The notes under the pieces are model-generated. The model was not told the DNA's origin, made no database searches, and worked only from the letters and a program-made list of their open reading frames with translations. Shown here one piece after another: positions 1,553 to 52,039 of a DNA stretch of 64,000 nucleotides. The translations under genes and the position numbers were made by a program. Source of the DNA: a phage; assembly GCA_024673055.1 (NCBI GenBank), contig GCA_024673055.1_4537.1; one strand, given 5' to 3'. Within the stretch, counting starts at the first letter, position 1, and the number at the start of each line of letters is the position of its first letter.

Positions 1553-3331
1553 GTGTCGCACATTATAACTAAATATGGATTTGATGTTGATCTTAGCAAG
1601 GAAGGGCATACAGGTTGTCCGCGCTGCATGAAAAATGGCAAGGATCGCTCTCGTAATAACCTGATGGTTTATGGATTAGATTCTAATGGAGAGCATAAAG
1701 GTGCTAAGTGCTTTGCGTGTGAATACACTATTCCTAGCGTAGAATGGTTACGAGAAAATGGTGAAGTTTTAGAAGAAGAGGAGGAGATTGTGGGTTCGGA
1801 ATTTAATAAACAGATTCATCGTAAAATTGTTCAAGAAACATCAACCAACCCACGTGGTTATCGAGGCATTAAAGAAAAAGTTTCATCTTTCTATGGTGTT
1901 CGTTATGAATACCGTCAGGAAGGGGATCAGATGGTAGTAGAAAGTTGTTTATATCCAACTACTATCGGTAAAGAATTGGTTGGTTTTAAGCGTCGTATTC
2001 ATCCTAAAGATTTCAGTAAACCTATTGGTCAAGTAGGTAAAGATGTAGATCTTTTTGGACAAATTCGTTTTGCAGACCGTTCTCATACTGTGGTAATTAC
2101 AGGTGGTGAACACGATGCTCTGGCAGCTTATCAAATGCTGTCTGAAAACTTGGACAACAAATATGAACTTCCAGCAGTAGTTAGTGGCACAACTGGTGAA
2201 ACCAGTATGTATAAACAAGTTCAGGCACAATATCCTTTTTTTGAAAAATTTAAGAAGATTATTGTTTGCATGGATAATGACAAAGCAGGTAATGAGGCAT
2301 TTGAAAATATTGTTAAGGTGCTGCCTCGTAACAAAGTCTACCGTATGCAGATGGATCTTAAGGATGCCAATCAGTATCTGGAAGAAGGTCGTGCAAAGGA
2401 TTTCGTAAAAGCTTTTTGGAGTGCTCGTCTATACACCCCAGCAGGTGTTTATGCTTCTAATGTCTTGTATGAAGCTGCATTAGAATGCTTGGAATCCAAG
2501 ATGATTACCTTGCCTCCTTTTATGCGTGTTGCTGCAAATATGCTGGGTGGTGGTTTAGTAGAGGAAGAGATTACAGTCATCCTGGCAAAGACCAGTATCG
2601 GTAAAACTTTGATGGTGAACGAGATCACCAAACATATTATTGTTGCGCACCCAGAACATACCCTAGGTATTCTGTCCTTGGAAGCAACTTATAAGAAATA
2701 TTCTCGTAACCTGTTGTCCTCGTTCCTGCATATTCCTCTACACAGGAAAACACCGGAAGAGAAATTTCAAATCTTGGAAGAGAATAAAGAAAAAATCCTA
2801 GATTTTTACGAAAGAGAAGATGGATCACCACGTTTTTATGTATGTGATGATCGTGGAGCAGATGTGGAGTCTATCAAAGAAAAAGTTTTGGAGATGATCA
2901 TCTATTTTGGAGTAACAATTCTTGTTATCGACCCTTATTCTGATTTGCTTTCTGGTATGGATGTTCAAGCCCAGGAAGAGTTAGCAACATGGTTGAAGCG
3001 CATCATGAAAGAGTATGCTATAACTATTATCGTCATCTCACACGTTAAGAAATCGGCTAATGGTGGCAATGAACACTTAACAGAGGACGATGCAATGGGT
3101 AGTAGTTTCTTGGCTAAAGGTGCTGGTATTACCTTGGCTTTGGAACGAGATAAAGCCGCTGAAGACCCTGTAGAACGCAATACGACTCATTGCTTTATCC
3201 TAAAAAACCGTGAGTTTTCGGAAACTGGTCCGGCAGGGCAGTTTTACTATGACATTAGAACTGCAACTCTGCATGACAAAGAGCAGTATTTCAACAATCC
3301 TGCTAATTTGCCTACGGATAGCAACTATTAA
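1553..3331 (+). CDS. DNA primase/helicase (T7 gp4-like)
   Basis: N-terminal Cys4 zinc ribbon (CPRC...CFAC), TOPRIM-like segment (VVITGGEHDALAAY), DnaB-type Walker A (ILAKTSIGKT) and Walker B (LVIDPYSDL). GTG start preceded by CAGGAGA. Confidence 0.85.
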   Translation: MSHIITKYGFDVDLSKEGHTGCPRCMKNGKDRSRNNLMVYGLDSNGEHKGAKCFACEYTIPSVEWLRENGEVLEEEEEIVGSEFNKQIHRKIVQETSTNPRGYRGIKEKVSSFYGVRYEYRQEGDQMVVESCLYPTTIGKELVGFKRRIHPKDFSKPIGQVGKDVDLFGQIRFADRSHTVVITGGEHDALAAYQMLSENLDNKYELPAVVSGTTGETSMYKQVQAQYPFFEKFKKIIVCMDNDKAGNEAFENIVKVLPRNKVYRMQMDLKDANQYLEEGRAKDFVKAFWSARLYTPAGVYASNVLYEAALECLESKMITLPPFMRVAANMLGGGLVEEEITVILAKTSIGKTLMVNEITKHIIVAHPEHTLGILSLEATYKKYSRNLLSSFLHIPLHRKTPEEKFQILEENKEKILDFYEREDGSPRFYVCDDRGADVESIKEKVLEMIIYFGVTILVIDPYSDLLSGMDVQAQEELATWLKRIMKEYAITIIVISHVKKSANGGNEHLTEDDAMGSSFLAKGAGITLALERDKAAEDPVERNTTHCFILKNREFSETGPAGQFYYDIRTATLHDKEQYFNNPANLPTDSNY

Positions 3332-3350
3332 GGGCTTCGGCCCTTTTATT
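3331..3350 (+). terminator. Rho-independent terminator after primase-helicase
   Basis: Hairpin GGGC-TTCG-GCCC followed by TTTTATT immediately after the stop codon. Confidence 0.55.
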
Positions 3351-3361
3351 AAAAATACCTG

Positions 3362-3390
3362 TTGACAACTTTACGGAAGGGACTTATACT
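3362..3390 (+). promoter_or_regulatory. Sigma70-like promoter
   Basis: TTGACA, 17-bp spacer, TATACT; followed by an RBS (AGAGGAG) and ATG at 3423. Confidence 0.55.
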
Positions 3391-3422
3391 TGTCTCATCA
3401 ACCAAACAAGAGGAGAAGTAAA

Positions 3423-3863: not shown

Positions 3864-4658
3864 TTGAGCAAGTTGAACACACTTGATCAATATTACACTA
3901 ACCCCGCTTATGCGGGGTTCTTATGTGATAAGATCAAAGAAATTTTTGGAGAGGAAGCTAACTACGTAGAACCATCTGCGGGAGAAGGAGCTTTCTCTTC
4001 TTGTTTTAAAAACATAACTTCTTTTGATATTGACCCTAAGTTTGAAGATTGTATTGAGGCAGATTTTTTAGCTCAATCTGTTGAGTCTGTTGGTAGTGTA
4101 ACTGCTTTTGTCGGTAATCCCCCGTTTGGAAAAAATGCTAGTCTTGCCATTAAGTTCTTTAACCATTGTGCTGAAATGTTGGATAACGAAGGTGGTATTT
4201 GTTTTATCTTGCCTCGCACATTTCAAAAAATCTTTTTTGCACACAAACTAAATCCCCACATGCATCTTCTTTACGAAGAAGAATGTCCAAAAGGATCTTT
4301 TATTCTTCATGGAGAACCTTGGGATGTTCCTTGCGTATTCCAGATATGGATTAAACGCAATGAGAAGCGTTCTCCCGTTGTTTTAGGAGAGAATCGACTG
4401 TTCGTATTAGGTAACAGTAAAGACTACGATATAGCCGTTAGGAGAGCGGGAGCAAGTGCAGGTAAAGTGTTATCAGAAGAAGATTCTTTATCTGAAGCAT
4501 CCACCTATTTTTTAAAAGCCTTGACTTCTGATCTTAAAACGCGTATCATTGAGGCTTACCCGTTACTTAAAGCTGAAGCTAGTAAAACTGCGGGAGTAAG
4601 AAGTTTAAGTTTAAAAGAACTTCAGTGGGTTCTGGAGAACATTAGAAAGGAGGAATAG
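3864..4658 (+). CDS. DNA N6-adenine (or N4-cytosine) methyltransferase
   Basis: SAM-binding motif I (VEPSAGEGAF) followed closely by catalytic motif IV (GNPPFGKN); motif order I then IV suggests gamma-class. TTG start after AGGAGG. Confidence 0.8.
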   Translation: MSKLNTLDQYYTNPAYAGFLCDKIKEIFGEEANYVEPSAGEGAFSSCFKNITSFDIDPKFEDCIEADFLAQSVESVGSVTAFVGNPPFGKNASLAIKFFNHCAEMLDNEGGICFILPRTFQKIFFAHKLNPHMHLLYEEECPKGSFILHGEPWDVPCVFQIWIKRNEKRSPVVLGENRLFVLGNSKDYDIAVRRAGASAGKVLSEEDSLSEASTYFLKALTSDLKTRIIEAYPLLKAEASKTAGVRSLSLKELQWVLENIRKEE

Positions 4659-7600
4659 TGAGTAAGTTTACATGGGATATTGAAGCAAACGGATTGTTGA
4701 ATAATGACACTATTGATTATTTAGCTAGTCCTTATCGTCTCAAAGACACATTTCAAATGCACTGTATTGTCTTAGAGAACCATGAAACAGGAGAAATAGT
4801 AGCTTTCCACGATGGCCCTAAATACATCTTTGATGGGCGTCCTTATGAAGAGTCAGATGGTAAATACACATATGTTCTTAAAGAGTATGTGGCGCAAGAT
4901 TACACACATTTTCAACTAAAAGATTTCCCAGACTTTATTAATCATGAAGGTTATTTTAAAGATAAGCCTGAATATCTGGTTGAAATGGCTGTGGCTCACA
5001 ACGGTATCAACTACGACTGGTTGGCTACAAAACTGTTTTATGGCTTAGATTACAGTGTTAAATATAACACGTGGGGCAAAAATAAGGTAAAACTTATTGA
5101 CTCCTTGATTTTGAGTAAAGTGTTAAACCCAGATCGAAAGATTGAGGGCAAATCAGGACATAGTTTGGCAGCACTTTCTCGAAAGGCAGGTGGTGATGTA
5201 AAAATAGATTTCCGTAAAGAGATTCCAGAAGAAGATCGATTTAAGACTTTTGCTGCGGATATGCTTTATTACTGTATTTATGACAACAAAGCCAATACGA
5301 GCGTATATAATTACCTTATGGAAGAATGGGGCGATTATGATAAATGGGAAGGTCCATTTGAACTTGAACAACGTGTAGCAGACATTATTACACGCCAGGA
5401 ACACCGTGGGTTTGCTTTTAACATGAAGCAAGCAGAAGAGAACCTTGCTTTTTTGGATGCAGAAATGGAGCGTCTTCGTTTACTCGTTGAGCCTATTTTG
5501 CCACCTAAACCAGCAACAAAAGGTTATCTTAAGGCTTTTATTCCACCTAAGTTGCAAATTAAAAAGAACTTAGAGCCAACTAACCATATGATCAATTTTG
5601 CTAAGAAACATGATGGTCATTTGGAAGAGAGGGATGGCGATTGGTGGTTAGTTATGTTGGGGAAAGAGTGGAAACTGCCAGTTGCAGCAGATGAGCCTCT
5701 ATGTGATCCTAACATTCCTGCAACATTGAACGATACAACCCATATTAAAAACTGGCTCGTAGGATTAGGTTGGGTACCGTCTGAATATAAAGATAAAGAC
5801 TTGACGCTTAAATCTGGCACCAAAATTAAAAAGAGCGAGGAAGAACTTCAGAAAGGTATTAGAGCTTACGTTGAGCAAACTCTATCTTCTAATTTTTGTC
5901 AGGATCGTTGTGATCATCTGGAGTGCACACCGGAAACTTTGGAAAGGAAGATTCAAGAGCGTATAGCAAAAGGTAAAGGTCGCGGTCTTAAAGTATTGAC
6001 TAACCCATGTTTTACCAAAGGTCAGGAAAAAGAAATTTGTCCTAACCTGCAAGCTTTGGGTGAGAAATTTCCTTATGCTACACAGATTGTAGAATACTTA
6101 ACGTATAAGCATCGTAGGAACTCTATTTTAGGTGGCGGTGCTGATTGGGAAGAAGATGAAGAAGATCAAGAATACGATAAAGGTTTCTTAGCCGCAGTAA
6201 GGGCGGATGGGCGTATTCCTACACCAGCCGCTACATGTGATGCTGCAACCTCTCGTATGAAACATAGATCTGTAGCTAATATTCCTCGTGTCACATCTTT
6301 GTTTGGATGGGAGATGCGTAACTTGTTTGGTGTAGAGGTTCCTAAATACTTCCAGATTGGCTACGACTTCGACTCTTTGGAAGCAAAAATTGAATCGCAT
6401 TACTGTGTGCCGATGGATGCTCAAGCTTTGACTCGTAAAGGTTGGGTAGGATATCACGACCTGAAGGAAGGGGATGAGATTTTAGGGTACAATGCTGAAA
6501 CAGGTCTGAAAGAATGGACTAAAGTAAAAGGTAAGGTCTTCTATAAAAATAGTAAGACGTTTGAGATTAAAGGGAAATCACACACTTACCGTGCAACAGC
6601 AGATCACCGTTGGTATGTTAATACCCGTAGTAAAGGGAATACTTATGTGCCTAAAGTCAGAACAACTGCCGAGCTTTGCACAGGAGATAACATTATTTGT
6701 AATGCTCCATTTAACATGGAACAAGATCAGGTAAATAGTTTAACTTCTGTTCAACAGGGTAAATGGGATGTTCCGTGGGTAGAACGTGTAGTTAATATGT
6801 CTCATGCCGAGCGTGTAGCTTTCTTGGAAGGTTTCTTGATTGCAGATGGTTACTGGCACGAACATAAACAAAAACCTGTTTGGCGTTGGGCGCAGAACCC
6901 AGGTGAACTTTTTGAAGCAGCTTTAACTGCCTCGTACCTGGTGCATGGAGGCAATATCTCTGTAGCTTTCAATACAAAAGAGCAGAAAGTAAAAGTGGCA
7001 ACATTGACTAACCGCTCTCACATTCCTGTTCAAAGTTTGACTATTGAAGAGTGGGGTGTAGAAGATGTTTGGTGTCCACAAACAGAACTTGGTACGTGGG
7101 TCATGCGTCAGAAAGACTGCATTACCATCACAGGAAACTGTTGGCGGTACGAGCCGGAGCCACACGAATATTGTAACGCTCTGTTGTTAGAGAAACCTAA
7201 TGATGTTCACACAATGATGGCAAAACGTATCACTGAAACTATTGGACGTAAATTTGAACGTAGTCCTGCTAAATCTGTTAAGTATGGTATTACCTATGGT
7301 GCACAAGCCGACAAGGTTGCTAAAACAATTGGTAGCGACAAGTTTACAGGTCAATTGGTGTTCGATGCTTTCTGGGAAGCTGCATTCCCATTGGCGCGTC
7401 TTAAAGAACGTTTAAACGATTTCTGGGTTAAGACTGGTAAACAATATGTTTTGGGTATTGACGGTCGTAAGGTTCCTACTCGTTCTGCTCACGCGATTCT
7501 TAACTCTCTGTTCCAAAGCGGTGGGGTTATCTGTGCTAAACGTGCAATGGTTATTTATGATGACATGATCGAAGAAGAAGGGCTAAGTGTTGACTTCTTT

Positions 7601-7990
7601 AAAGATGACTGGAAGAATAAAGACTTCGTGCAACAAATGATTGCATATCACGATGAAGCCCAGCTTGAAGTTTCTCGTAACCTTGTAGAATTCAAATGGT
7701 TTTCACCGGAATCATTAGGTTGGAAGAAAGTAGACGATCCTGAAGAACAAAAGAAAATTGATAAAGAATGCCTTGCTAAAGTTGAAGAATGGAAGCATAA
7801 TAAGGAAAAAGAGACAGGGCAAATTTGGGCTAACATTCATGAATCTCCCAAAGGTGGATGGTTTACAGCTTATAGTCGGGCAGGTGAACTTGCTGCTTTA
7901 GCTGTTACTAAGGCTGGAGAATTTTACAATCTTAATGTTCAGCTTACTGCTGGATATGACGTGGGGAATTCCTGGGCCAGTTGTCACTGA
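4658..7990 (+). CDS. DNA polymerase, family A with 3'-5' exonuclease domain, interrupted by an intein
   Basis: Exo I (DIEANGL), Exo II (HNGINYDW) and Exo III (YYCIYD) motifs. Pol motif A (DFDSLEAKIESHY) is separated from motif B (KSVKYGITYGA) by a 245 aa insert with intein and LAGLIDADG signatures. Confidence 0.9.
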   Translation: MSKFTWDIEANGLLNNDTIDYLASPYRLKDTFQMHCIVLENHETGEIVAFHDGPKYIFDGRPYEESDGKYTYVLKEYVAQDYTHFQLKDFPDFINHEGYFKDKPEYLVEMAVAHNGINYDWLATKLFYGLDYSVKYNTWGKNKVKLIDSLILSKVLNPDRKIEGKSGHSLAALSRKAGGDVKIDFRKEIPEEDRFKTFAADMLYYCIYDNKANTSVYNYLMEEWGDYDKWEGPFELEQRVADIITRQEHRGFAFNMKQAEENLAFLDAEMERLRLLVEPILPPKPATKGYLKAFIPPKLQIKKNLEPTNHMINFAKKHDGHLEERDGDWWLVMLGKEWKLPVAADEPLCDPNIPATLNDTTHIKNWLVGLGWVPSEYKDKDLTLKSGTKIKKSEEELQKGIRAYVEQTLSSNFCQDRCDHLECTPETLERKIQERIAKGKGRGLKVLTNPCFTKGQEKEICPNLQALGEKFPYATQIVEYLTYKHRRNSILGGGADWEEDEEDQEYDKGFLAAVRADGRIPTPAATCDAATSRMKHRSVANIPRVTSLFGWEMRNLFGVEVPKYFQIGYDFDSLEAKIESHYCVPMDAQALTRKGWVGYHDLKEGDEILGYNAETGLKEWTKVKGKVFYKNSKTFEIKGKSHTYRATADHRWYVNTRSKGNTYVPKVRTTAELCTGDNIICNAPFNMEQDQVNSLTSVQQGKWDVPWVERVVNMSHAERVAFLEGFLIADGYWHEHKQKPVWRWAQNPGELFEAALTASYLVHGGNISVAFNTKEQKVKVATLTNRSHIPVQSLTIEEWGVEDVWCPQTELGTWVMRQKDCITITGNCWRYEPEPHEYCNALLLEKPNDVHTMMAKRITETIGRKFERSPAKSVKYGITYGAQADKVAKTIGSDKFTGQLVFDAFWEAAFPLARLKERLNDFWVKTGKQYVLGIDGRKVPTRSAHAILNSLFQSGGVICAKRAMVIYDDMIEEEGLSVDFFKDDWKNKDFVQQMIAYHDEAQLEVSRNLVEFKWFSPESLGWKKVDDPEEQKKIDKECLAKVEEWKHNKEKETGQIWANIHESPKGGWFTAYSRAGELAALAVTKAGEFYNLNVQLTAGYDVGNSWASCH
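6404..7138 (+). mobile_element. Intein with LAGLIDADG homing-endonuclease-like domain, inserted after Pol motif A
   Basis: Insert begins with Cys (CVPMDAQALTRKGW...GDEILGYN, block A-like), has a TxxH block B (TADHRWYV) and a LAGLIDADG-like motif (FLEGFLIADGYW), and ends ...ITGN with Cys at +1. The flanks rejoin into a contiguous Pol A motif region. Confidence 0.7.
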
Positions 7991-8009
7991 TCTAACGTAT
8001 TGTTTTATA

Positions 8010-8030
8010 AGGGGCTTCTGCCCCTTTATA
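8010..8030 (+). terminator. Terminator-like hairpin after DNA polymerase
   Basis: GGGGC-TTCT-GCCCC followed by TTTATA; the T-tract is short. Confidence 0.45.
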
Positions 8031-8039
8031 GGAGAAGAT

Positions 8040-8231
8040 ATGAGTTACGATTTAGATTGTTTTGGTATGCCTTATCTACCAGATGAATTTGAAGGTGAAG
8101 AAGAACGTGAATGGGACGATGGGGATATCCGTTGTTGGTCTTGTGGCAAAGATATGTCTTATGAACAACATATGCACAATGATGGTTTCTGCATACATTG
8201 TTATAATGAAATTGATCTGGAGGAAGATTAA
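8040..8231 (+). CDS. Small acidic Cys-rich (zinc-ribbon-like) protein
   Basis: ATG at 8040 after AGGAG. CxxC...CxxC pattern (CWSCGK...CIHCYNE) in an Asp/Glu-rich protein. Confidence 0.5.
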   Translation: MSYDLDCFGMPYLPDEFEGEEEREWDDGDIRCWSCGKDMSYEQHMHNDGFCIHCYNEIDLEED

Positions 8232-8398
8232 TGGGAAATGGTATCATGATTTGCTATAAAATTGTGCGTATTGTCGGAGACGAAATTACCACTCGGTATT
8301 TTATGATAGAGTCTCAAGCCGATGAGGTTTACAATGACTGGCTTGAAAAAGGTGGGTACGATTTTGTATCTAAAGAAACTTTCCGTTTAGAAGTATAA
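8231..8398 (+). CDS. Hypothetical small protein (56 aa)
   Basis: ORF not in the track (below 60 aa). Start overlaps the upstream stop (TAATG) and it fills an operon gap. Confidence 0.35.
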   Translation: MGNGIMICYKIVRIVGDEITTRYFMIESQADEVYNDWLEKGGYDFVSKETFRLEV

Positions 8399-8408
8399 GG
8401 AGAAAACA

Positions 8409-8627
8409 ATGCGTAAATTAGTGAGCTTTAATGTTTCAATTTTTGTTGATGAACAAAATGAAGATGTTATTAAGGGTCTTGCAAATAAGATTGCAGGTGG
8501 AATGACGGAAGCTGAAGTGTGGGAAGAATGTGCTCGACTTTATGAGGAAGGTGTTATTGAGGTCTTGGGGGATGAGATTAATATGGACGATGTTGTAAAA
8601 GTAACTGTGGAGCGTATCAATGACTAA
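8409..8627 (+). CDS. Hypothetical protein
   Basis: 72 aa ORF preceded by a GGAGAAAA RBS. Confidence 0.5.
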   Translation: MRKLVSFNVSIFVDEQNEDVIKGLANKIAGGMTEAEVWEECARLYEEGVIEVLGDEINMDDVVKVTVERIND

Positions 8628-9213
8628 ATCAAAACAAATCAATATTGCCAAAGAAATTCTTACCGTATTAAAGATCGCTGATCCTAATTCTGTCTTGGCT
8701 GGCGGTGCTGTTCGTGATTGGCGTATTCTTGATATTGCTGGACGTGATCTGGATTTCTATACATCCCTTCCTGCACATCGGACTGAAGAACAAATACAAG
8801 GATTAATTGCATCTGCTTTAATGGGAACCAATATTCGTAAACTAGGAAACAAAGAGGCTTCTGACAATTATGAAGGTGTTACTGGTCTTAAACACGTTTT
8901 TGAGTTTGAACGTGATGGTCAGCTTTGCAACCTTATGATTATGGAACCAAGCGTAATGACAACCTTTCTAAATGAGTTCGATCTGTCCATCTGCCAAGCT
9001 GCATTTGATGGGAAGGATTGTTATTATTCTAAAGATTTTGAAACAACCTTGGAAACAGGGATCTGCTTCTTGCACAAAGACGTTAGAGAAGATGCCAAAC
9101 ACGTTATTAAAATTGCTACACGTTTCCCATATCTTCGTTTTGTGAAAGAGGTTAAGGTTCCACGTCCACCTCAAGTAGATACCAGATTGGAAGAAGATGA
9201 TATTCCTTGGTAA
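8620..9213 (+). CDS. Pol-beta superfamily nucleotidyltransferase (CCA-adding / poly(A) polymerase head-domain-like)
   Basis: GGAVRD motif followed by DxD (LAGGAVRDWRILDIAGRDLDFY). The C-terminus ends EEDDIPW, resembling the SSB tip DDDIPF. Confidence 0.6.
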   Translation: MTKSKQINIAKEILTVLKIADPNSVLAGGAVRDWRILDIAGRDLDFYTSLPAHRTEEQIQGLIASALMGTNIRKLGNKEASDNYEGVTGLKHVFEFERDGQLCNLMIMEPSVMTTFLNEFDLSICQAAFDGKDCYYSKDFETTLETGICFLHKDVREDAKHVIKIATRFPYLRFVKEVKVPRPPQVDTRLEEDDIPW

Positions 9214-9220
9214 TTAAAGC

Positions 9221-9250
9221 TTGACAATATTAAACATTTTATGATAGGAT
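9221..9250 (+). promoter_or_regulatory. Candidate sigma70-like promoter
   Basis: TTGACA, ~18-bp spacer, TAGGAT, upstream of the ATG at 9259. Confidence 0.35.
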
Positions 9251-9258
9251 AGCATTCA

Positions 9259-9651
9259 ATGACTGAACGTTCTAAGATAGCTGTTGAAACTGTTTATGGA
9301 AACTATACCAGTTTGACACTAGTTGAGAAAAATGTTGTAGGTCTTGACAACTCTTTTTATTTTCAAATTTTGGTTATTCAAGGTGGAAACAAGAAGCTAA
9401 CTGCTCGTGTTGAAACATCTGAAATAATTGAAACCACTGTTACAAACAAAGAATTCATTTCACTGCAAGATACAATCCGAAACGTTATAGACGAAGAAGG
9501 CAAAGCTGCCACAATTAAACTCGGAGGTTTTCCAGTGCAAATAGTTCATTTCCCTAATGGTGAAATTGGAGTTGGAATAGGTAAAGGTAAATACCTGTTA
9601 GAGCAAGATGATATGGAAAGACTCCGCTCTTTCTGTGCAAAATTAATGTAA
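9259..9651 (+). CDS. Hypothetical protein
   Basis: 130 aa ORF in operon context. Confidence 0.5.
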   Translation: MTERSKIAVETVYGNYTSLTLVEKNVVGLDNSFYFQILVIQGGNKKLTARVETSEIIETTVTNKEFISLQDTIRNVIDEEGKAATIKLGGFPVQIVHFPNGEIGVGIGKGKYLLEQDDMERLRSFCAKLM

Positions 9652-9667
9652 TGTAGAGGAGATAATA

Positions 9668-10600
9668 ATGTCCGTAATTAATACTGAAACTGATCGTAAA
9701 GGCAAAACCGTAACTTATGCAACTGGTATCGTAGACTACGTTAAACTGGATAAATTCGCTGAACCTAAAACTTTTCATTGGGAAGGAAAAACGATTGTTT
9801 CAACTCACCGAGCTTCTCTTGTTCTGAAAGAGAAAGGTGCTAAACCAGATGAGAAAGGTGTTTGGATTTCTCTTGGTGACATTGAACTGAAAGAAGGTTA
9901 TGAAAACCTGCAAGTCAAAGAAGGTGATAATTGGATCACTATTGAAAAAGGTGTAGAAGTAAGTATTGATATTGATCGCGTTGATAATAAAGGCGGTAAA
10001 ACTTACTACAATACTAAAAAATCTCGTATTACAGTATTGTCTACCGATGGTGTTCAGAAGTCTAACAAATCTTCTGGCAATAAAGGTTCCAACGATGCTG
10101 CTCCTAAGCAATCCTATAAAAAACGTGATACTGTAGGTCTGGAAACTGGTCACGCAGTAAATGGTGCACTGGAACTGATTCGTAATGGTGTTAAAGGCGA
10201 TGCTTTCGATATCGCTGGGGTTGTTCAATCTGCAACTGTCACGCTGAAATCGGAAATTGCTGAATCTCGTGGCGTTGATATTAATGATTATGATCTTGGG
10301 GCATCTGTTGGTCACGCTATTCTTAATGCTTGTAAAGACCATACCATTAAGACTGTATCTGTAGAAGATCTGATTGACTCTGCTCGTAAAGTTCTAGCTC
10401 TGTCTGATAAAGTTGCTGCTGCCATTCGTGGTTCCGCAGAACAACCTAAGAAAGAAGAGAAGAAAGAAGTTAAAAAGCCTGAACCACAACCAGAACCAAC
10501 TCCAAGTAATCAAGAAGAACCTCCAATGGACTTCGACGATGATATTCCATTTGCTCCTATTGGACTGCAATATGGTCGAAACTTCCTGCATTGCTTCTAA
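9668..10600 (+). CDS. Putative single-stranded DNA-binding protein
   Basis: Acidic C-terminal region containing the E. coli SSB-type motif DFDDDIPF, Lys-rich linker, position in the replication module. Assignment is inferred. Confidence 0.45.
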   Translation: MSVINTETDRKGKTVTYATGIVDYVKLDKFAEPKTFHWEGKTIVSTHRASLVLKEKGAKPDEKGVWISLGDIELKEGYENLQVKEGDNWITIEKGVEVSIDIDRVDNKGGKTYYNTKKSRITVLSTDGVQKSNKSSGNKGSNDAAPKQSYKKRDTVGLETGHAVNGALELIRNGVKGDAFDIAGVVQSATVTLKSEIAESRGVDINDYDLGASVGHAILNACKDHTIKTVSVEDLIDSARKVLALSDKVAAAIRGSAEQPKKEEKKEVKKPEPQPEPTPSNQEEPPMDFDDDIPFAPIGLQYGRNFLHCF

Positions 10601-10640
10601 GGTTTGTTTCAAGTGTGTGAGGTTGAACGCTGAATAAAAG

Positions 10641-10670
10641 AAAGGAGCCATTTGGCTCCTTTTCTTATTT
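10641..10670. terminator. Bidirectional rho-independent terminator at the convergence of plus and minus gene blocks
   Basis: Perfect 9-bp inverted repeat AAAGGAGCC / GGCTCCTTT with a 4-nt loop, flanked by A-run and T-run; lies between the stops of convergent genes. Confidence 0.6.
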
Positions 10671-13337
10671 ATAATTGGAAGGAATGTTGTTATAATCAGA
10701 AAGTTTTGTGCAATACCTGAATAGGTAACTATTAGCTACTCCGCCTAATGTATTTGTTAATGTTGTTCCTGTTCCTGTAAGATTTGTGCATCCACTAAAG
10801 AAAGAAGATAATGCTCCACGTTTACCACAAACAGTTAACCCTGGGTTGTCATTAAAGATTTTATTAAAATCTGTAAGTGCTAAACAACCTTGGAATGTGG
10901 CTGTTAAAGAGGTCACTTTCGTTGGAATATTATCAAACATTCCTGCTGGAACTTCTGCAAGAGAGGTGCAATCTTTAAAGGTGTAAGAATATCTTGTAAC
11001 TTTTGATAGATTCTTAAATAAATCTGAAGGAATAGATGTTAAAGATGTACAACCTTCAAACGTGCTTGACATTGTTGTCATTGAAGGAAATAAAGCATCA
11101 CTGAATAATCCTTCAGGGATAGCTGTCAAACTTGTGCAGCCAGAGAAGATACCGCTTATAGATGTTCCGGTGTAAGATGTGTTACTAAAACAATCAGAAG
11201 TTATTCGTCTTAAGTTAGCACAACCTTTTAAGAATTGTGAGGCTGGGCTTGTAGAATAACCAATTCTGTTGCCGCCCCATAATTCTAAAAGATCTGGATT
11301 TGCTTCCATAGACACATCAACACTATTCACTACTGAAGCACTTGCAAATTCAATAGCCAGTCTATATTCTCCTGCTGGATAACTATCCACTGTAGAGAAA
11401 GCTTTATTTCTAAATATTACTTTATTTGAAGGTATTACAACGTCATCCACCTTAACTACAAAGTTAGCTGGTGTGACAGTACCCGATAAAATTGGGAACG
11501 TAATTGCCCCATCTGCCGAGTGGTTGAAATATCCGTTTAGAACCGTTAAACTACTACTCGGAGATGGAGCTAACTCCTTTCCCGCAACAGCGTTCACCGT
11601 TAAATAAGAACTATCAGAAGCGGTAACAACACCTTGATATGTAGCTGTGCAACCAATCCTACAACCACCATCACCAACACCAGTTATTACACCAGTTGTA
11701 GGATCTACTGTAGCAACACTAGGATCTGTAGTTGTATACTCAACAACCATACCAGGTAAGCTTGCTGCTCCTGTTGGTGTTATTTCTGCTACCATTGTTT
11801 GTGTTGTTCCTACATCCATCGCAGATAAGCTAGGGGTGTAAACACTCAATGTTGAAGCATACCCTCCAGAGGTATCTGATAAAGTTGTTCCTTCAGCGTT
11901 TAAGGCTGTCATACCTGCATCAAAACCACCTTCTGCATGGAAAGTCATTAAACCAGTAGATGATATTGTCATGTTTGCAGGGGCAGAAGAAGTGTATTTA
12001 ATATTGAAAAGTTTACCTCCTTCTGGGCTAACAGAATGTGTCAACTGTTTAGTTCCACCTACAATACAAATTCCTAAAGAATCTGTAGTTAAGCTAGTTG
12101 CCAGCACATCTCCCGTAATCACAGAGCTTGCTATCGGTGTGAATTTATTATAATTTAGACCACTGTTGAACAGATACGAGGCTTTCCCATCTTTCCAAAT
12201 ACCGGAATAATACATATCCCCGTTATAAACGAAAAAGGTTCCTTGATAACCTAATTGGTTAGTAATATCCATATTCAGCGTATGAACGCTTGTGAGCTTG
12301 TTTATATCCCAGGAACCCACTCCTTCAGGTTTAACTGGTTTTCCCACTTGGAGTGGATCTCCGCTCGCAGAATCATACCCCAAACCTAAGTTTGCAGTGT
12401 AGTTCTTACCAATAGCCCACAAGGAATTATTGATCCCAACGAAAAAAGAGTGGCGGCTTGGTGGAAATTTCCATGTTGAGAAACCTGCTGCAAAGGTGTC
12501 CAGTTTAGTGTAGGTTGTTTCTGTATTAGACCTAACATATAAGTAGTTTACTGTACCCGTGCCGCCGGAGGTATCTCCTACAACTATTGTCTGGGAAACT
12601 GTATTGATGTAATCTTTGACATACACTGTTTCAGTAGTGGATATCGTGGCATTGACAAAAGCGGTTGTTGTGTTATTATTACCTGCTAAACCTTTACTAG
12701 CTCCACAAACACGCAAGGTTCCCACATTGTTGACATAAGAGCATTGGTTGTAACCTGCATCAAAAGCAACTGCTGAACTTGTTATCTGACGAGGAGTAGA
12801 AACTTCGTTAGTAGTGCTTGCACCTAAACTACCTACTGTGTTTTGACCCGATCCATAAAGAACACCACTATTCATTAACCAGAGAGTATTGTTATACCCT
12901 CCTTTAACCTCTTTAAGATTGGCTAAAGAAATAGTCCCTGTTATTACAGATGGAAAGCTGGTCCAAGTAGTTACACATGCATCCGTACCACCTGCTGCTA
13001 TAGATCCTACCAACCCTGCTGTCAATCCTGAATATTGCCATCCCCCACTATTAGTTTTAATAACAAAACAACGATCTGCGGTAAACACATCCGCTACTAC
13101 AGTAGAAGCTAAGTGGAAATTATTGAATCGTGCACTACGAGTTCCATCTGCAATCTCACCAAAGAGGTTTGCGCCTTGAGTAAACAATCTACCATCATTA
13201 AGCAAAATTGCTAAACTACTGTTAGAATTACCAGCGTTATCTGGGTAATCTAAAGTAATTACTTTTTTAACAATACCTGCTGGCAGAGGAACGACACCAG
13301 TACTGGTCATAATAGTAAATATTGGAATTGGAAACAT
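10665..13337 (-). CDS. Receptor-binding tail protein with Ig-like (Big_2-like) and BspA-type leucine-rich-repeat C-terminal domains
   Basis: C-terminal tandem repeats F-x-GC-TSLT-x-IP-x-x-LF (five or more copies), a Big_2-like segment (VAEITPTGAASLPGMVVEYTTTDPSVATVD) and N-terminal RCC1-like G-x-N-x-x-G-x-LG motifs. Confidence 0.6.
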   Translation of the reverse strand: MFPIPIFTIMTSTGVVPLPAGIVKKVITLDYPDNAGNSNSSLAILLNDGRLFTQGANLFGEIADGTRSARFNNFHLASTVVADVFTADRCFVIKTNSGGWQYSGLTAGLVGSIAAGGTDACVTTWTSFPSVITGTISLANLKEVKGGYNNTLWLMNSGVLYGSGQNTVGSLGASTTNEVSTPRQITSSAVAFDAGYNQCSYVNNVGTLRVCGASKGLAGNNNTTTAFVNATISTTETVYVKDYINTVSQTIVVGDTSGGTGTVNYLYVRSNTETTYTKLDTFAAGFSTWKFPPSRHSFFVGINNSLWAIGKNYTANLGLGYDSASGDPLQVGKPVKPEGVGSWDINKLTSVHTLNMDITNQLGYQGTFFVYNGDMYYSGIWKDGKASYLFNSGLNYNKFTPIASSVITGDVLATSLTTDSLGICIVGGTKQLTHSVSPEGGKLFNIKYTSSAPANMTISSTGLMTFHAEGGFDAGMTALNAEGTTLSDTSGGYASTLSVYTPSLSAMDVGTTQTMVAEITPTGAASLPGMVVEYTTTDPSVATVDPTTGVITGVGDGGCRIGCTATYQGVVTASDSSYLTVNAVAGKELAPSPSSSLTVLNGYFNHSADGAITFPILSGTVTPANFVVKVDDVVIPSNKVIFRNKAFSTVDSYPAGEYRLAIEFASASVVNSVDVSMEANPDLLELWGGNRIGYSTSPASQFLKGCANLRRITSDCFSNTSYTGTSISGIFSGCTSLTAIPEGLFSDALFPSMTTMSSTFEGCTSLTSIPSDLFKNLSKVTRYSYTFKDCTSLAEVPAGMFDNIPTKVTSLTATFQGCLALTDFNKIFNDNPGLTVCGKRGALSSFFSGCTNLTGTGTTLTNTLGGVANSYLFRYCTKLSDYNNIPSNYK

Positions 13338-46739: not shown

Positions 46740-48815
46740 TTATCTTTTACGGACACTATACGGTTGGTGAAATCCGCTGTTCATTCTACTGTATCCTGTA
46801 GGAGCATTTGTTGTTGTAGGGATAGCTACTGCTTTGAAAGTATTCTCTTTTGACAGAGTATTAAAACAAGAGGCAGCAGCATCGGGAATGTCATCTTTAA
46901 TAGTGGCTGTAGATCTTTCACCATTGAAAGATTCCAATTCTTTATAAAAGTGGGTTAAAGTTTCCACATTAGGGAAAGAATCTTCAACAATATAAACAAA
47001 ACCGTTTTGACACGCACTACTAAAAGGCATAAAACGCTGAAGCTTTTTCTTGTTACCTGGCATAGCATCTGGTTTAACAACAAAACCTTCTAGAATAAGT
47101 TTCTTTGCAGACTCTGTGTATTCTATTGTCCCAGCACCAGATGGGTCTTTAGGAAGCACTACTGTAACTTCTGGTCCATCAATCTTACATTGATTTAGAA
47201 TCAGGTTATCCCTTTCCCCAGGTAGTCTTCGAAACCTTCCGAAAATTTTACTTTTCTCATCCACAGCATCATAATCATAGTCGCCAAAGATGTAGATATT
47301 ACCATCTTGATCTTTACCCATTTTGACAGATGTTGTATAGTCTGGATAACGGTAAGTTTCTGTAGGAACTGAAACAGCTTTATCCCATGCTCGCATTAGT
47401 TTAAGATTGTTAGGAACATCTTTATAAGATATTTTATGTAACCATTCACGTTGAAAGAAAGATTCTTTCTGGATACGTGCAAACCAACAACCGTCCAGAA
47501 GCTGTGCTCTTTTGATAGCTGTTTGTGATTTAAGCTGTGCTAAGTAATTAGGGTTAAGCCTAATGAGTTCTGGGTTATCAAATATTGTCCCACCAATAAA
47601 TACGAAAGTTTGTGGTTCAATAACAACTGTCTCCCCTGTATTAGGGTTTTCCATGAAACAGTTTTCTGGATATTTTTCTTTCAGTTCTTCAGGTGTGTCA
47701 GCAAAAACAGGTTCATCGTTAACAATGATGAAATATTTTTGTTTACCACACATATCTTCTCTAGGATAACCACCCTCATCAAGATAAGGTAACACCCAAT
47801 TCAAAACCCAACTATCTGCGTCAGGGTTACATGTGCACAACATGAAACTTGTTTCTGACTCTGAACGCATACGTCCCAGAAGATAGAGCATTTCATATTG
47901 TGTGAAGTGGGTTAACTCGTCAAAACCTACCATTGAATACTGTGTACCCTGATGGTTTGTTTCTGCTGTTACGTTATCATTTTCCAAATGGTCAAATTTG
48001 AGGGTTCCACCACCAGTGGCTTCAAAAATGATATCCATTGTACTTTCTTTTACGTGTGGTTGTAAAGGAAGATACAAACGTTTTGCTTCTGTAAACAGAC
48101 CACCTGGTTTACGGTGAGCAGTGGTGTTCTTACGGAAAAGTATTCCACCAAACAAAGGGTCTTTGTAGGCGTATTTTAAAGCTTTCAGCAATAGCAGACG
48201 AGACTTGCCGCTATTCCCAGTAACGAAGCAGTGATCGCCACGTCTAAAGACAATATAGCTGCTTGGAGTCTCAAAACAATATTTCTTATCATCTGTTGAA
48301 ATAACCTCGTGTATTTTTAAGTAAGTGCTCTTTTTACCAGGTATGTTAAAAGGAACACGTTTACCGAATGGATTTTCTACATAACCTTGCAGGGGTTTTC
48401 CTATTTGCTGTAATGCAATAAGATCTCCTACAAGAATCTCGAAATGTTTCTTTGATTTCTTTTTCTTATAGAATACAAAACGGTGTTCCATACTAAGTTC
48501 TTGGAATAATCCTACACCATTTGTTATTCTGTATAGGTTATCTCCATTTAAATCGTATTCTACAAAATAAGGTGTTACCAATTCTAAACGCTTATTCTTA
48601 GGATTGTATTGGTAAATATCCTCTCCCGAATATTCACTAATCTGCCTCCAACCATCTTTTGTAAGATATTCCGTTTCAGCAGAAACACATCCAGCGGCAC
48701 CACCATAAATCATAACTTCTGGCATTAAATCCATTGCAAGAGTCTGTTTACCTGGTTGAGCCTTTACCTCAATATCTACTCCAGCTAAACTACCTGCTGC
48801 CTTTTTCTTTGCCAC
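46740..48815 (-). CDS. Terminase large subunit, interrupted by a mini-intein in the Walker A P-loop
   Basis: P-loop split as ...IYGGAAG [159 aa insert] SGKSRLL...; Walker B-like MVGFDELTHF; GTG start. Confidence 0.85.
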   Translation of the reverse strand: MAKKKAAGSLAGVDIEVKAQPGKQTLAMDLMPEVMIYGGAAGCVSAETEYLTKDGWRQISEYSGEDIYQYNPKNKRLELVTPYFVEYDLNGDNLYRITNGVGLFQELSMEHRFVFYKKKKSKKHFEILVGDLIALQQIGKPLQGYVENPFGKRVPFNIPGKKSTYLKIHEVISTDDKKYCFETPSSYIVFRRGDHCFVTGNSGKSRLLLLKALKYAYKDPLFGGILFRKNTTAHRKPGGLFTEAKRLYLPLQPHVKESTMDIIFEATGGGTLKFDHLENDNVTAETNHQGTQYSMVGFDELTHFTQYEMLYLLGRMRSESETSFMLCTCNPDADSWVLNWVLPYLDEGGYPREDMCGKQKYFIIVNDEPVFADTPEELKEKYPENCFMENPNTGETVVIEPQTFVFIGGTIFDNPELIRLNPNYLAQLKSQTAIKRAQLLDGCWFARIQKESFFQREWLHKISYKDVPNNLKLMRAWDKAVSVPTETYRYPDYTTSVKMGKDQDGNIYIFGDYDYDAVDEKSKIFGRFRRLPGERDNLILNQCKIDGPEVTVVLPKDPSGAGTIEYTESAKKLILEGFVVKPDAMPGNKKKLQRFMPFSSACQNGFVYIVEDSFPNVETLTHFYKELESFNGERSTATIKDDIPDAAASCFNTLSKENTFKAVAIPTTTNAPTGYSRMNSGFHQPYSVRKR
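48213..48689 (-). mobile_element. Mini-intein (159 aa) inserted in terminase P-loop
   Basis: Insert starts with Cys (CVSAETEYLTKDGWRQISEYSGEDIYQYN, block A-like), has an (S/T)xxH block B (SMEHRF), ends ...FVTGN with Ser at +1; excision would restore GGAAGSGKS. Confidence 0.75.
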
Positions 48816-50315: not shown

Positions 50316-50394
50316 TGGAGGCGGGAATCGGATTCGAACCGATGATCTCCAGCATATGAAACTGGCGAGGACGACCAGACTCCTCTATCCCGCT
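50316..50394 (-). tRNA. tRNA-Met (anticodon CAT), CCA encoded
   Basis: Hand-folded cloverleaf: T-arm ATCGG-TTCGAAT-CCGAT, anticodon stem CCAGT/GCTGG with loop TTCATAT, D-stem GAGG/CCTC; the 1-72 pair is A-C (unpaired). Confidence 0.6.
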
Positions 50395-50400
50395 ATTATG

Positions 50401-50470
50401 TATCCCGTGCTGGATTCGAACCAGCATCACAATAAGTTGTGGAACTCTTATCCTGTAAGTCTAACGGGAA
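50401..50470 (-). tRNA. tRNA-like element with aberrant anticodon arm (possible pseudo-tRNA)
   Basis: Good T-arm (GCTGG-TTCGAAT-CCAGC) and near-complementary acceptor, but the anticodon region folds only as CACAA-CTTA-TTGTG (4-nt loop). Confidence 0.3.
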
Positions 50471-50472
50471 AC

Positions 50473-50546
50473 TGGTTGTTTCGACAAGAATCGAACTTGT
50501 GTCTCACGATTATCAGTCGTGGGTTCTACCATTGAACTACGAAACA
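50473..50546 (-). tRNA. tRNA-Ile (anticodon GAT), CCA encoded
   Basis: Acceptor TGTTTCG/CGAAACA, D-arm GTTC-AATGGTA-GAAC, anticodon stem CACGA/TCGTG with loop CTGATAA, T-arm ACAAG-TTCGATT-CTTGT. Confidence 0.7.
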
Positions 50547-50552
50547 TTTGAT

Positions 50553-50629
50553 TGGTCGGAATTGCAGGATTCGAACCTGCGACCCTACGCTCCCAAAGCG
50601 TATGCTCTACCAAACTGAGCTAAATTCCG
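50553..50629 (-). tRNA. tRNA-Pro (anticodon TGG), CCA encoded
   Basis: Acceptor CGGAATT/AATTCCG, D-arm GCTC...GAGC, anticodon stem TACGC/GCGTA with loop TTTGGGA, T-arm GCAGG-TTCGAAT-CCTGC. Confidence 0.7.
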
Positions 50630-50634
50630 TTATA

Positions 50635-50710
50635 TGGCTGGTCTGTCTGGATTTGAACCAAACCTACGACAGTCAAAGTGTCGTGTGCTACCGGACTACA
50701 CTACAAACCA
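50635..50710 (-). tRNA. tRNA-Gln (anticodon TTG), CCA encoded
   Basis: Acceptor TGGTTTG/CAGACCA (one GU pair), anticodon stem CGACA/TGTCG with loop CTTTGAC, T-arm TTTGG-TTCAAAT-CCAGA. Confidence 0.65.
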
Positions 50711-50808
50711 ATAAATCATTTAATGAAGGGCAACCAGAAGAGGTGTGAGAGAAGGAGAAAACCATGAGTAAAAGAGAAAGTTTTCTGGCAACCCTTTATT
50801 AAATAATT

Positions 50809-50882
50809 TGGAGCGTTCTACGAGGATCGAACTCGTGCCGCCGACTTGGAAGGACGGAATGCTACCGCTACACCAAGAACGC
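50809..50882 (-). tRNA. tRNA-Gly (anticodon TCC), CCA encoded
   Basis: Acceptor GCGTTCT/AGAACGC, anticodon loop CTTCCAA (stem has one U-U mismatch), T-arm ACGAG-TTCGATC-CTCGT. Confidence 0.6.
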
Positions 50883-50893
50883 CCTACATCTTT

Positions 50894-50923
50894 ACTATAC
50901 TACATTTTACTATTGGTTGTCAA
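50894..50923 (-). promoter_or_regulatory. Sigma70-like promoter (minus strand) for downstream tRNAs
   Basis: On the minus strand AACTATTGACAA, 18 bp, TATAGT, just upstream of tRNA-Gly. Confidence 0.5.
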
Positions 50924-51383
50924 TAGTTTTATTGAGTGGGACAGTGACGAGTATCCCGTTGGGTGACTAGCCCTACGTTCGGTAAGCTAACTTAAAATAA
51001 TACAAAACCAAAGTCAAATATTATTCTTCGTTGCTGTCGATGGGAGAGCCGCTTCTTCTTTTGCCCCATCCAACCCTACTCCGGTCAAGTTTCAGGTAAC
51101 TCTTTTTGTGATCAACACAATACTAAGAACACTGTCTTTCGAGCAGACCTTGTGCACAGGATACGACGATCAATCACAGTGCTCTTAATGTTGTGTTGTG
51201 AATACTAACCTCGGAACTCATTACCGCGTTTTGGCTCGACCTTACTACAGGTTAGTGAATGTCTTTCGTCCGCTTACATTCAATAAGTTTGCTTTCTTCA
51301 CAACGATAAGAACACTTAACAGAAGATAGGTCTGATTGCCTCGGATGATTTCTCAGTAGCCTAAATGTTCTTACCTGTTATGT

Positions 51384-51458
51384 TGGTGCTCCCACTCTGA
51401 ATCGAACAGAGATCCACGGATTACAAAACCGTTGTAATAGCCATTATACTATAGGAGC
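51384..51458 (-). tRNA. tRNA-Thr (anticodon TGT), CCA encoded
   Basis: Acceptor GCTCCTA/TGGGAGC, anticodon loop TTTGTAA (stem with one U-U mismatch), T-arm CTCTG-TTCGATT-CAGAG. Confidence 0.55.
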
Positions 51459-51464
51459 AAAGCT

Positions 51465-51541
51465 GGGACTCGGCAGGATTCGATACCTGCAATTTCAGAA
51501 GCCTCTTGGCGACTGGGGGTTTACCTTAACTCTACAAGTCC
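51465..51541 (-). tRNA. tRNA-like element, non-canonical (8-nt T-loop, no foldable anticodon arm)
   Basis: Acceptor GGACTTG/CGAGTCC and T-arm-like GCAGG-TATCGAAT-CCTGC, but no 5/7/5 anticodon arm could be found by hand. Confidence 0.3.
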
Positions 51542-51548
51542 ATAATTC

Positions 51549-51634
51549 TGGCGATGAGTATAGGATTTGAACCTATATCGTTCTTTCGAACACGGATTAA
51601 CAGTCCGCCGCTTAAACCATTCAGCCAACTCATC
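51549..51634 (-). tRNA. tRNA with anticodon GTT (Asn codons) on a long-variable-arm, Tyr-like body; CCA encoded
   Basis: Perfect acceptor GATGAGT/ACTCATC, anticodon arm GCGGA-CTGTTAA-TCCGT, 15-nt variable arm (GTTC-GAAA-GAAC), T-arm ATAGG-TTCAAAT-CCTAT; lies adjacent to tRNA-Tyr. Confidence 0.5.
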
Positions 51635-51640
51635 TTAATT

Positions 51641-51728
51641 TGGTGGTGAGTGATGGAGTCGAACCACCCGAATCGCAATGATAACAGATTTACAGTCTGC
51701 CCCGCTACCCCTACGGAATTAACTCACC
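51641..51728 (-). tRNA. tRNA-Tyr (anticodon GTA), type II, CCA encoded
   Basis: Acceptor GGTGAGT/ACTCACC, anticodon arm GCAGA-CTGTAAA-TCTGT, long variable arm, T-arm GGTGG-TTCGACT-CCATC. Confidence 0.65.
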
Positions 51729-51858
51729 TAAATACTAATATTTAAATTCTTTTTAAAATAGCCAGTGTTCACACCACTAACTATGAGTTATCGGTAAGAT
51801 GGTGGGGGCCATCTGCCGAAAGTTTACTCTATTAAAGTAAGCTATATTAAAAAGAACT

Positions 51859-51944
51859 TGGCGGTAGATGTAGGACTCGAACCTACATGCCGTTTCCGAC
51901 TACAGTTTAGCAAACTGTCGTGGCTACCATTTCACCAATCTACC
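51859..51944 (-). tRNA. tRNA-Ser (anticodon GCT), type II, CCA encoded
   Basis: Acceptor GGTAGAT/ATCTACC, anticodon arm ACAGT-TTGCTAA-ACTGT, long variable arm, T-arm GTAGG-TTCGAGT-CCTAC. Confidence 0.65.
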
Positions 51945-51948
51945 AATC

Positions 51949-52039
51949 TGGCGGAAGGAGGGAGAGTCGAACTCCCAAGGCTCTTTCAAGCTCGGCGGTT
52001 TTCAAGACCGTTTTCGTCGCCACGTCGATTTGCCCTTCC
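51949..52039 (-). tRNA. tRNA-Ser (anticodon TGA), type II, CCA encoded
   Basis: Acceptor GGAAGGG/TCCTTCC, anticodon loop CTTGAAA, long variable arm, T-arm GGGAG-TTCGACT-CTCCC. Confidence 0.55.

Follow-up and report, generated by a model that had tools for sequence, protein, structure and literature searches.

The 64,000-nucleotide (nt) stretch of phage DNA analysed here (GenBank assembly GCA_024673055.1, contig GCA_024673055.1_4537.1), referred to as the window throughout, carries a gene for a small nucleotidyltransferase (NTase), which is the subject of this work. The window is from Phapecoctavirus, a phAPEC8-like E. coli myovirus with a genome of ~150 kb, and its nt 8000–10700 are 97–99% identical to dozens of Phapecoctavirus genomes. 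The NTase gene itself is 96–100% identical across ~65 genomes of the genus. It is an already annotated kind of phage gene, the existing GenBank labels being “nucleotidyltransferase” and “putative tRNA nucleotidyl transferase/poly(A) polymerase”. The start codon of the gene overlaps the stop codon of a small upstream open reading frame (ORF) (ATGACTAA), and a GGAG sequence sits 8 nt 5′ of the start. The genes in this part of the window follow the order primase/helicase, DNA polymerase, three small ORFs, NTase, a 130-residue protein and a gene whose product resembles an SSB (a protein that binds single-stranded DNA) in its tail. The same gene order around the NTase is found in the sister genus Justusliebigvirus. 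The NTase gene is part of the replication module. Coordinates of the features are collected in Table 1.

Table 1. Features of the NTase gene and of other genes in the window (aa, amino acids; AF2, AlphaFold2).
Feature	Position (nt)	Strand	Remarks
NTase gene, 197 aa	8620–9213	+	ORF with ATG start and TAA stop (9211–9213); equivalent of Mt1B1_P17 gp114
GGAVRD, aa 28–33	8701–8718	+	Glycine loop and R-D of NTase motif A; family consensus GGAPRDW
DLD, aa 43–45	8746–8754	+	Two metal-binding carboxylates (DxD)
E95	8902–8904	+	Candidate third carboxylate, in the central β-strand aa 90–98 of the AF2 model
aa 157–170, EDAKHVIKIATRFP	9088–9129	+	Helix likened by eye to class II motif D
Linker, aa 177–192	9148–9195	+	Proline-rich, unstructured, variable; no secondary structure past residue 176 (AF2)
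DDIPW, aa 193–197	9196–9210	+	SSB-type C-terminal tip with free carboxylate
Primase/helicase gene	1553–3331		
Family A DNA polymerase gene	4658–7990	+	630 nt upstream of the NTase gene, same strand
Conserved protein, 130 aa	9259–9651	+	Function not assigned; PHROG 16560, E 1.1e-76; between the NTase and SSB-like genes
SSB-like protein, 310 aa	9668–10600	+	SSB-type tail
10 tRNA genes	50316–52425	-	All with encoded CCA
Phosphoesterase/RNA ligase/polynucleotide kinase cassette	57040–58930	+	T4-type tRNA-repair kind

The NTase matches PHROG 10174 with an E-value of 6.5e-63 and PHROG 1614 with an E-value of 5e-11, both of which are annotated as nucleotidyltransferase. By HMMER and hhalign, its GGAVRD aligns with the GGAVRD of CCA-adding enzymes, and its DLD is aligned with the DxD of CCA enzymes as well as with that of homologs of Gad2 (Gabija anti-defence 2). 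Conservation was assessed on an alignment of 137 family sequences. Residues G28, G29, D43 and D45 are invariant in all 137, and A27, A30, R32 (132/137), D33 (125/137), W34 (136/137), Y84 and K164 are each conserved in at least 90% of them. Because the motifs belong to a genuine family, as seen from PHROG 10174 and the conserved alignment columns, the occurrence of GGAVRD and DxD is not due to chance. The conserved GG...DxD indicates an intact catalytic core that is predicted to be competent, and the conserved basic residues probably bind the triphosphate. Position 95 is E in 78, D in 18 and N in 21 of the 137 sequences, i.e. an acidic residue in 96 of them, and E95 may have a catalytic role. 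The segment likened to motif D overlaps helix 160–168 of the AF2 model; this equivalence comes from our own reading and from known sequences of CCA enzymes rather than from a residue-level structural alignment. Within the segment, K164 (133/137), K/R168 (116/137), F169 (120/137) and P170 (106/137) are retained, but the family conserves neither E157 nor D158, so that the basic residues are kept and the base-templating E/D/R are not.

The AF2 model, calculated with the family alignment as input, has a predicted local distance difference test (pLDDT) score of 93.3 and a predicted TM-score (pTM) of 0.86, and is compact up to about residue 176. In a Foldseek comparison with the PDB, class II tRNA nucleotidyltransferases rank first, with sequence identities of 14–18%. 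The top match is the CC-adding enzyme of A. aeolicus (3wfr; E 2.6e-5, TM-score 0.55), followed by 3h39, 5hc9 and 4wc2; next in rank are the CCA enzyme of T. maritima and the A-adding enzymes. Within a set of viral structures, the best matches are phage proteins of ~170–215 aa, including “nucleotidyltransferases” of Autographiviridae. Querying the PDB with the sequence of the NTase by itself yielded nothing beyond noise, and the family profile matched CCA enzymes of the PDB over motif A only (E 0.0028). On the evidence of the model, the NTase is a stand-alone Pol-β-fold enzyme, consisting of a class II (CCA/poly(A)-polymerase-type) head followed by a short helical stub.

With a profile built from close homologs, an exhaustive HMMER search retrieved 1047 cluster representatives at a threshold of E ≤ 1e-3, of which 334 also reach E ≤ 1e-10. 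Among the 150 best matches, almost all are 170–240 aa long, and the extensions of ten longer members (257–400 aa) contain no Pfam domain. PADLOC returned no match. Family NTases are encoded directly after the DNA_pol_A gene in three lineages, after a 5′-3′ exonuclease in two and after a UvrD-type helicase in one; others lie near a DNA ligase or DNA methyltransferases. One 84-kb phage contig (locus L011) encodes two Gad2-like NTase paralogs (2636–3400, 254 aa; 5001–5615, 204 aa), which flank a Dam-type DNA methyltransferase. In Vibrio phage ICP1, ORF223 (locus L004, 4956–5369) is a truncated family form of 137 aa that comprises only the N-terminal two-thirds; the DNA ligase gene lies 3.5 kb upstream of it, and the genes for phosphoribosyl pyrophosphate (PRPP) synthetase and NAPRTase lie downstream.

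Gad2, a phage protein of 400 aa, is a predicted NTase. Phage SPbetaL7 becomes sensitive to Gabija when Gad2 is knocked out, the protein is toxic upon expression, and its mechanism was not established (Yirmiya et al., 10.1101/2023.05.01.538930). The literature that we searched offers no mechanism for Gad2 either. The family was compared with Gad2 through precomputed PF26128 (Gad2) marks and through hhalign alignments with Gad2 homologs taken from the supplement of that paper. A PF26128 match is recorded for about half of 120 family members, in the strongest class (E ≤ 1e-5) for P0177 and P0161 and weakly for P0252. Aligned by hhalign with the experimentally verified Gad2 homolog of Brevibacillus laterosporus, the family reaches a probability of 88.7% (E 2.5e-6), and aligned with seven Gad2 homologs it reaches 97.2% (E 3.4e-11) over 113 columns, which span residues 19–153 of the NTase and ~22–141 of Gad2. 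The two alignments together cover only residues ~16–141 of Gad2. The same comparison with the E. coli CCA enzyme gives a probability of 26% over 24 columns. In profile space, therefore, the family is nearer to Gad2 than to the CCA enzyme. The initial annotation, which had compared the protein with CCA-adding and poly(A) polymerase heads, overlooked this closer kinship, a remote homology seen in the profiles. No further Gad2-like gene turned up when this phage genome was searched for one.

Beyond residue 176 the NTase carries a tail that ends as ...PRPPQVDTRLEEDDIPW, its last residues being L-E-E-D-D-I-P-W. The pLDDT of the model drops to ~59 over the final residues. When the NTase was compared with 8 homologs of 59–83% identity, the mean identity to the query was 0.67 for the core (aa 1–176), 0.37 for the linker (aa 177–192), which contains insertions and deletions, and 0.95 for the tip (aa 193–197). 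This pattern indicates that the tail is under selection. Another protein ending in DDIPW is a relative with 37% identity, encoded by a phage whose gene order is the same. When the proteins of the window were taken together with those from the remainder of a nearly identical phage genome, the NTase was the sole one ending in D[DE][ILVM]P[FWY].

Which other phage proteins end in this way? IMG/VR was scanned for DNA encoding DDIPW followed by TAA, which gave at least 118 matches; the counts that follow cover the matches listed. An ORF of at least 45 aa is closed by 115 of them. Clusters of 42, 8 and 5 ORFs, 55 in total, have representatives that match the PHROG SSB families 18154, 44 and 9002, and every one of the 8 ORFs in the second cluster matches the oligonucleotide-binding (OB) domain of E. 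coli SSB. Further clusters correspond to a DNA helicase (PHROG 16; 3 members), a deoxynucleoside monophosphate (dNMP) kinase (PHROG 139; 1 member) and several unassigned families. The proteins are encoded at IMG/VR loci L016–L135, e.g. L046 6833, L048 6308, L113 and L050. Since DDIPW ends these proteins too, the tip of the NTase is of the kind used by phage SSBs and other replication enzymes, and the sharing of SSB tips among phage enzymes of replication and nucleotide metabolism looks widespread. Part of the initial annotation is borne out by these results: it had described a GGAVRD plus DxD nucleotidyltransferase, which the conserved GG...DxD and the match to PHROG 10174 confirm; it had called the protein far shorter than CCA enzymes, and its 197 aa compare with 412 aa for the E. 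coli CCA enzyme; and it had likened the tail to the tip of SSB, a likeness that the conservation of the tip over the linker and the occurrence of DDIPW at the end of true phage SSBs uphold.

Related tips were also observed next to other members of the family. Vibrio phage 1.253.O, which has a family NTase, encodes between its polymerase and exonuclease a 232-aa protein of PHROG 862 (locus L003, 3759–4457) with the C-terminus ...STDDGEDIPW; as this DIPW-type tip follows a linker rich in Pro, Thr and Gln, the protein is likely an unannotated SSB. At another locus (L012, 3816–4895), the 5′-3′ exonuclease adjoining a family NTase ends in ...ELADFDDEF.

In the window itself, the SSB-like neighbour of the NTase contains a tip of this kind in an internal position. 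Its residues 284–295 (nt 10517–10552; EPPMDFDDDIPF) are identical to the C-terminus of E. coli SSB and are followed by 15 further residues (APIGLQYGRNFLHCF, nt 10553–10597). Most of the 120 homologs of this protein end exactly at ...DFDDDIPF, and a scattered subset possesses a conserved [AS]P[ILV]GLQY... extension, which would bury the free carboxylate of the tip. In sequence searches, only the tail ties this protein to SSBs.

What would a nucleotidyltransferase gain from an SSB-type tip? The reading that we favour, to which we give about an even chance of being right, is that a Pol-β-fold, Gad2-related NTase docks with its tip at a hub that binds SSB tips and transfers nucleotides there, with counter-defence as the most plausible purpose. 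The free carboxylate of DDIPW would dock into a pocket that recognises the C-termini of SSBs, a pocket that belongs either to the phage replisome or to host proteins that interact with SSB. On the phage side, the family A DNA polymerase encoded upstream of the NTase is a candidate partner. In phage T7, the acidic tails of gp2.5 and gp4, which end in Phe, bind the polymerase gp5. Such docking would concentrate the NTase at forks or on single-stranded DNA, where it may attach a nucleotide to the 3′ end of a nucleic acid, to a protein or to a small molecule. In doing so it may weaken a host defence that keeps watch over DNA ends or nucleotide pools, just as Gad2 counters Gabija.

Several observations weigh against this proposal and have to be set beside it. 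The first concern the tip. The NTase of Justusliebigvirus ends in NNEEFKI, and since this genus keeps the gene and its synteny without the tip, the tip is dispensable for the core function. Outside the Phapecoctavirus clade, SSB-like tips are found on ~10 of 255 family members compared with 4 of 234 background ORFs, which is not clearly an enrichment; sporadic cases elsewhere in the family read PWDEEF, PWEDLF, ETPF, DDDF and KPIPF. Because the enrichment over this small background sample is unconvincing, we do not claim the tip as a trait of the whole family. In addition, the tip of the NTase ends in Trp where E. coli SSB has Phe. The second concern the link to Gad2. The NTase has no significant BLAST match to Gad2, a small Gad2 HMM (hidden Markov model) has no direct match to it, and the closest relatives of the NTase have PF26128 matches that are at most “faint”, as is that of P0016, the closest tip-bearing relative examined. 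Validated Gad2 has ~400 aa with an extra C-terminal domain, which the 197-aa NTase lacks. The family to which the NTase belongs is remotely homologous to Gad2 in the N-terminal domain of the latter, a relationship seen profile-to-profile only. Because the homology is remote, the transfer of anti-Gabija function to the NTase is a lead and not a finding.

If the tip leads the enzyme to the replisome, need counter-defence be involved at all? It is unlikely, in our view, that the NTase is purely a replisome accessory, tethered by its tip to the phage polymerase or helicase and processing the 3′ ends of primers, Okazaki fragments or genome termini. The positions of family genes after DNA polymerase, 5′-3′ exonuclease and UvrD helicase genes agree with such a role, as do the DDIPW or related acidic-aromatic tips on a phage helicase, a dNMP kinase and a 5′-3′ exonuclease, and the loss of the conserved ribose-selecting residues could allow deoxynucleoside triphosphates to be used. 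However, no known phage replication scheme requires an enzyme of this type. The patchy spread of the family, exemplified by the 137-aa form of ICP1 and the contig with two paralogs, is a pattern seen more often with accessory or counter-defence genes, and the sole experimentally characterised relatives are anti-defence proteins.

Counter-defence itself could be imagined in a very specific form, in which SSB mimicry delivers the Gad2-like NTase to a nuclease or helicase that binds SSB tips, or to the DNA ends on which it acts, and nucleotidylation of that protein or of the DNA 3′ end disarms a defence, such as Gabija, that senses DNA ends or nucleotides. We regard this as rather improbable. Some Gad2 homologs listed in Supplementary table 10 of Yirmiya et al. 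have aromatic ends, namely ...ETLKPIF and ...KAVPIF in Paenibacillus and ...EAPYPWF in Schlesneria. These ends hint that C-terminal docking tips may recur in Gad2 proper, and the tips of the ...KPIF, ...VPIF and ...YPWF kind are compatible with delivery by SSB mimicry.

The toxicity of related proteins suggests a different target, namely host RNA. The NTase would then be a mini poly(A) or poly(N) polymerase, or a MenT-like toxin, that tails host mRNA or tRNA and thereby shuts off expression or speeds decay. Small phage NTases are indeed toxic when over-expressed, as has been found for fHe-Kpn01 Gp22, Emajogi gp22 and SPbetaL7 Gad2. Nevertheless, the toxic proteins of Autographiviridae, some of which are annotated as Gad2-family, form a sister family linked by fold, with no kinship detectable by BLAST. 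The NTase has no RNA-binding domain, and both its SSB-type tip and its location in the replication module favour transactions on DNA over those on RNA. For these reasons we hold that an RNA-tailing role is quite improbable.

The initial annotation had also proposed that the enzyme may repair or tail the 3′ ends of tRNA or RNA and so complement the repair cassette. In this reading, a minimal CCA- or A-adding enzyme mends damaged CCA ends on tRNAs of the phage or the host, in concert with the phosphoesterase/RNA ligase/polynucleotide kinase cassette. Its closest matches among solved structures are indeed CCA-, CC- and A-adding enzymes. The segments EFDLSIC and REDAKH stand, in our own placement, at the positions of motifs B and D, and the phage encodes 10 tRNA genes together with the RNA-repair cassette. 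Small NTases such as MenT, moreover, have no body or tail domains and yet act on the acceptor ends of tRNA (PMC11541572, PMC10435456). The profile scores, first of all, stand against this. A search with the PolyA_pol HMM (PF01743), the check suggested along with the proposal, gave 13.9 bits over residues 26–65 only, under the Pfam cut-off of 23, and the NCBIfam CCA model TIGR02692 gave 12.6 against a cut-off of 438.8. Just 18 of the 137 family members reach E ≤ 0.01, and the family profile is nearer to Gad2 than to the CCA enzyme. The NTase also lacks the neck, body and tail domains, its fold ending at about residue 176, whereas its structural matches are 350–517 aa long.

The motifs beyond motif A point in the same direction. 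In class II enzymes, motif B is RRDxTxN and serves in ribose recognition, and motif D is EDxxR and templates the base. In the NTase family, neither the aspartate of motif B (D121) nor the E/D/R of motif D (E157, D158) is conserved: the consensus at these places reads F..SIC and Y.....H..K....FP, and a 66%-identical homolog, P0004, reads NEYAKH at the motif D position. Since hhalign aligned only 24 columns with the E. coli enzyme, this mapping of motifs B to D comes from our own reading together with column statistics. All 10 phage tRNA genes already encode their 3′ CCA, and CCA supply is therefore rejected as a rationale. The cassette lies 48 kb away, the NTase gene being in the replication module, and the family is also present on phage genomes and contigs of 39–47 kb, in or beside replication-gene neighbourhoods. 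Repair of tRNA CCA ends complementing the cassette is therefore not supported, in view of the missing tRNA-binding domains, the encoded CCA and the distance of the cassette, and we judge it distinctly unlikely. The NTase is probably not a CCA-adding enzyme, and the label usually given to it, tRNA nucleotidyltransferase/poly(A) polymerase, probably misleads.

Finally, it is highly improbable that the tail is mainly a decoy that competitively blocks host SSB-interacting proteins (ExoI, RecQ, RecJ, PriA and others), with the NTase domain incidental or a mere scaffold. The tip does closely resemble the DDDIPF of E. coli SSB and is the sole free one here, given the 15 residues after the internal tip of the SSB-like protein. 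However, the family keeps its catalytic residues without variation, in the clade with the tip as elsewhere; an enzyme that is monomeric and present in catalytic amounts would compete poorly with tetrameric SSB; and related phages have a free DDDIPF on the SSB-like protein in addition to DDIPW on the NTase, P0010 and P0273 both stemming from a contig of 142,327 bp that is probably one and the same.

The favoured reading, docking of a Gad2-related NTase at an SSB-tip-binding hub, is of interest for several reasons. Small phage NTases with this fold occur widely, are often harmful to the host through their toxicity and routinely carry the wrong label of tRNA nucleotidyltransferase. The anti-Gabija activity of Gad2 is validated, and a tipped relative in an E. 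coli phage gives a handle on the target of this class of enzymes in a tractable host. A conserved SSB-type tip on a Gad2-like minimal NTase appears to be unreported in the literature searched, which contained no report of SSB-tip mimicry on an NTase. The presence of DDIPW on phage helicases, a dNMP kinase and SSBs suggests that tip sharing is a general route by which enzymes are assembled at the fork. If delivery by SSB mimicry were true, it would constitute a new counter-defence mechanism, in which an enzyme is delivered by mimicry of the SSB tail. If the NTase is an ordinary accessory enzyme, the gain is a corrected annotation.

A few further observations were made around the replication module. 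The DNA polymerase gene in the window encodes 1110 aa, compared with 865 aa in Mt1B1_P17; the difference is a 245-aa insertion (~6404–7138), and the remainder is 100% identical. The insert starts with C-V-P, ends in ...TGN followed by Cys, and includes FLEGFLIADGYW, which is LAGLIDADG-like; its appearance is that of an intein containing a homing endonuclease. A 92-aa protein (Mt1B1_P17 48190–48468), encoded directly upstream of the primase/helicase gene, has the C-terminus ...EAEYMMETNEPF, a further acidic tail with an aromatic terminus in the replication module. A gene of 129–132 aa holds the slot of the 130-aa protein in Justusliebigvirus muut and at locus L006, from a more distant relative, the similarity being judged by size and position. 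A scan for promoters and terminators found sites no more frequently than in shuffled sequence; a TTGACA-18-TAGGAT site at 9221–9250, just 3′ of the NTase gene, carries no weight.

With the head domain (PF01743) of class II tRNA nucleotidyltransferases and of bacterial poly(A) polymerase I, the NTase shares motif A, GGAVRD-x9-DLD, and the head-domain fold of an N-terminal helix followed by a β-sheet core; it differs from them in being of head size only, in its sub-threshold Pfam score and in the lack of family-wide conservation of motifs B and D. Like Gad2, it is a phage-encoded Pol-β-type NTase domain with an AGG...DxD and an FDxx[IV]C motif, and like the stand-alone forms of 214–228 aa in the list of Gad2 homologs (10.1101/2023.05.01.538930) it stands alone. 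Gad2 has GGAITS where the NTase has GGAVRDW, and the DDIPW tip is found on the NTase and is not described for Gad2. Among other small enzymes, the Streptococcus pneumoniae protein 2LA3 (NP_344798.1) is also a stand-alone CCA-head-domain protein, but it is bacterial, shows 13% identity, and has no reported SSB-type tip. The MenT/AbiEii toxins are likewise small Pol-β-fold NTases without large RNA-binding domains, and relatives are toxic; the profile or structure match and the neighbouring cognate antitoxin that mark members of that group were not found for the NTase. As for the tip, it resembles those of E. coli SSB (...MDFDDDIPF) and of T7 gp2.5 and gp4 in its acidic run at the extreme C-terminus and in its I-P-aromatic ending, and, as in SSBs, it is conserved while the disordered linker before it drifts. 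Unlike the tip of SSB, it closes with Trp instead of Phe and is carried by an enzyme rather than by a DNA-binding protein.

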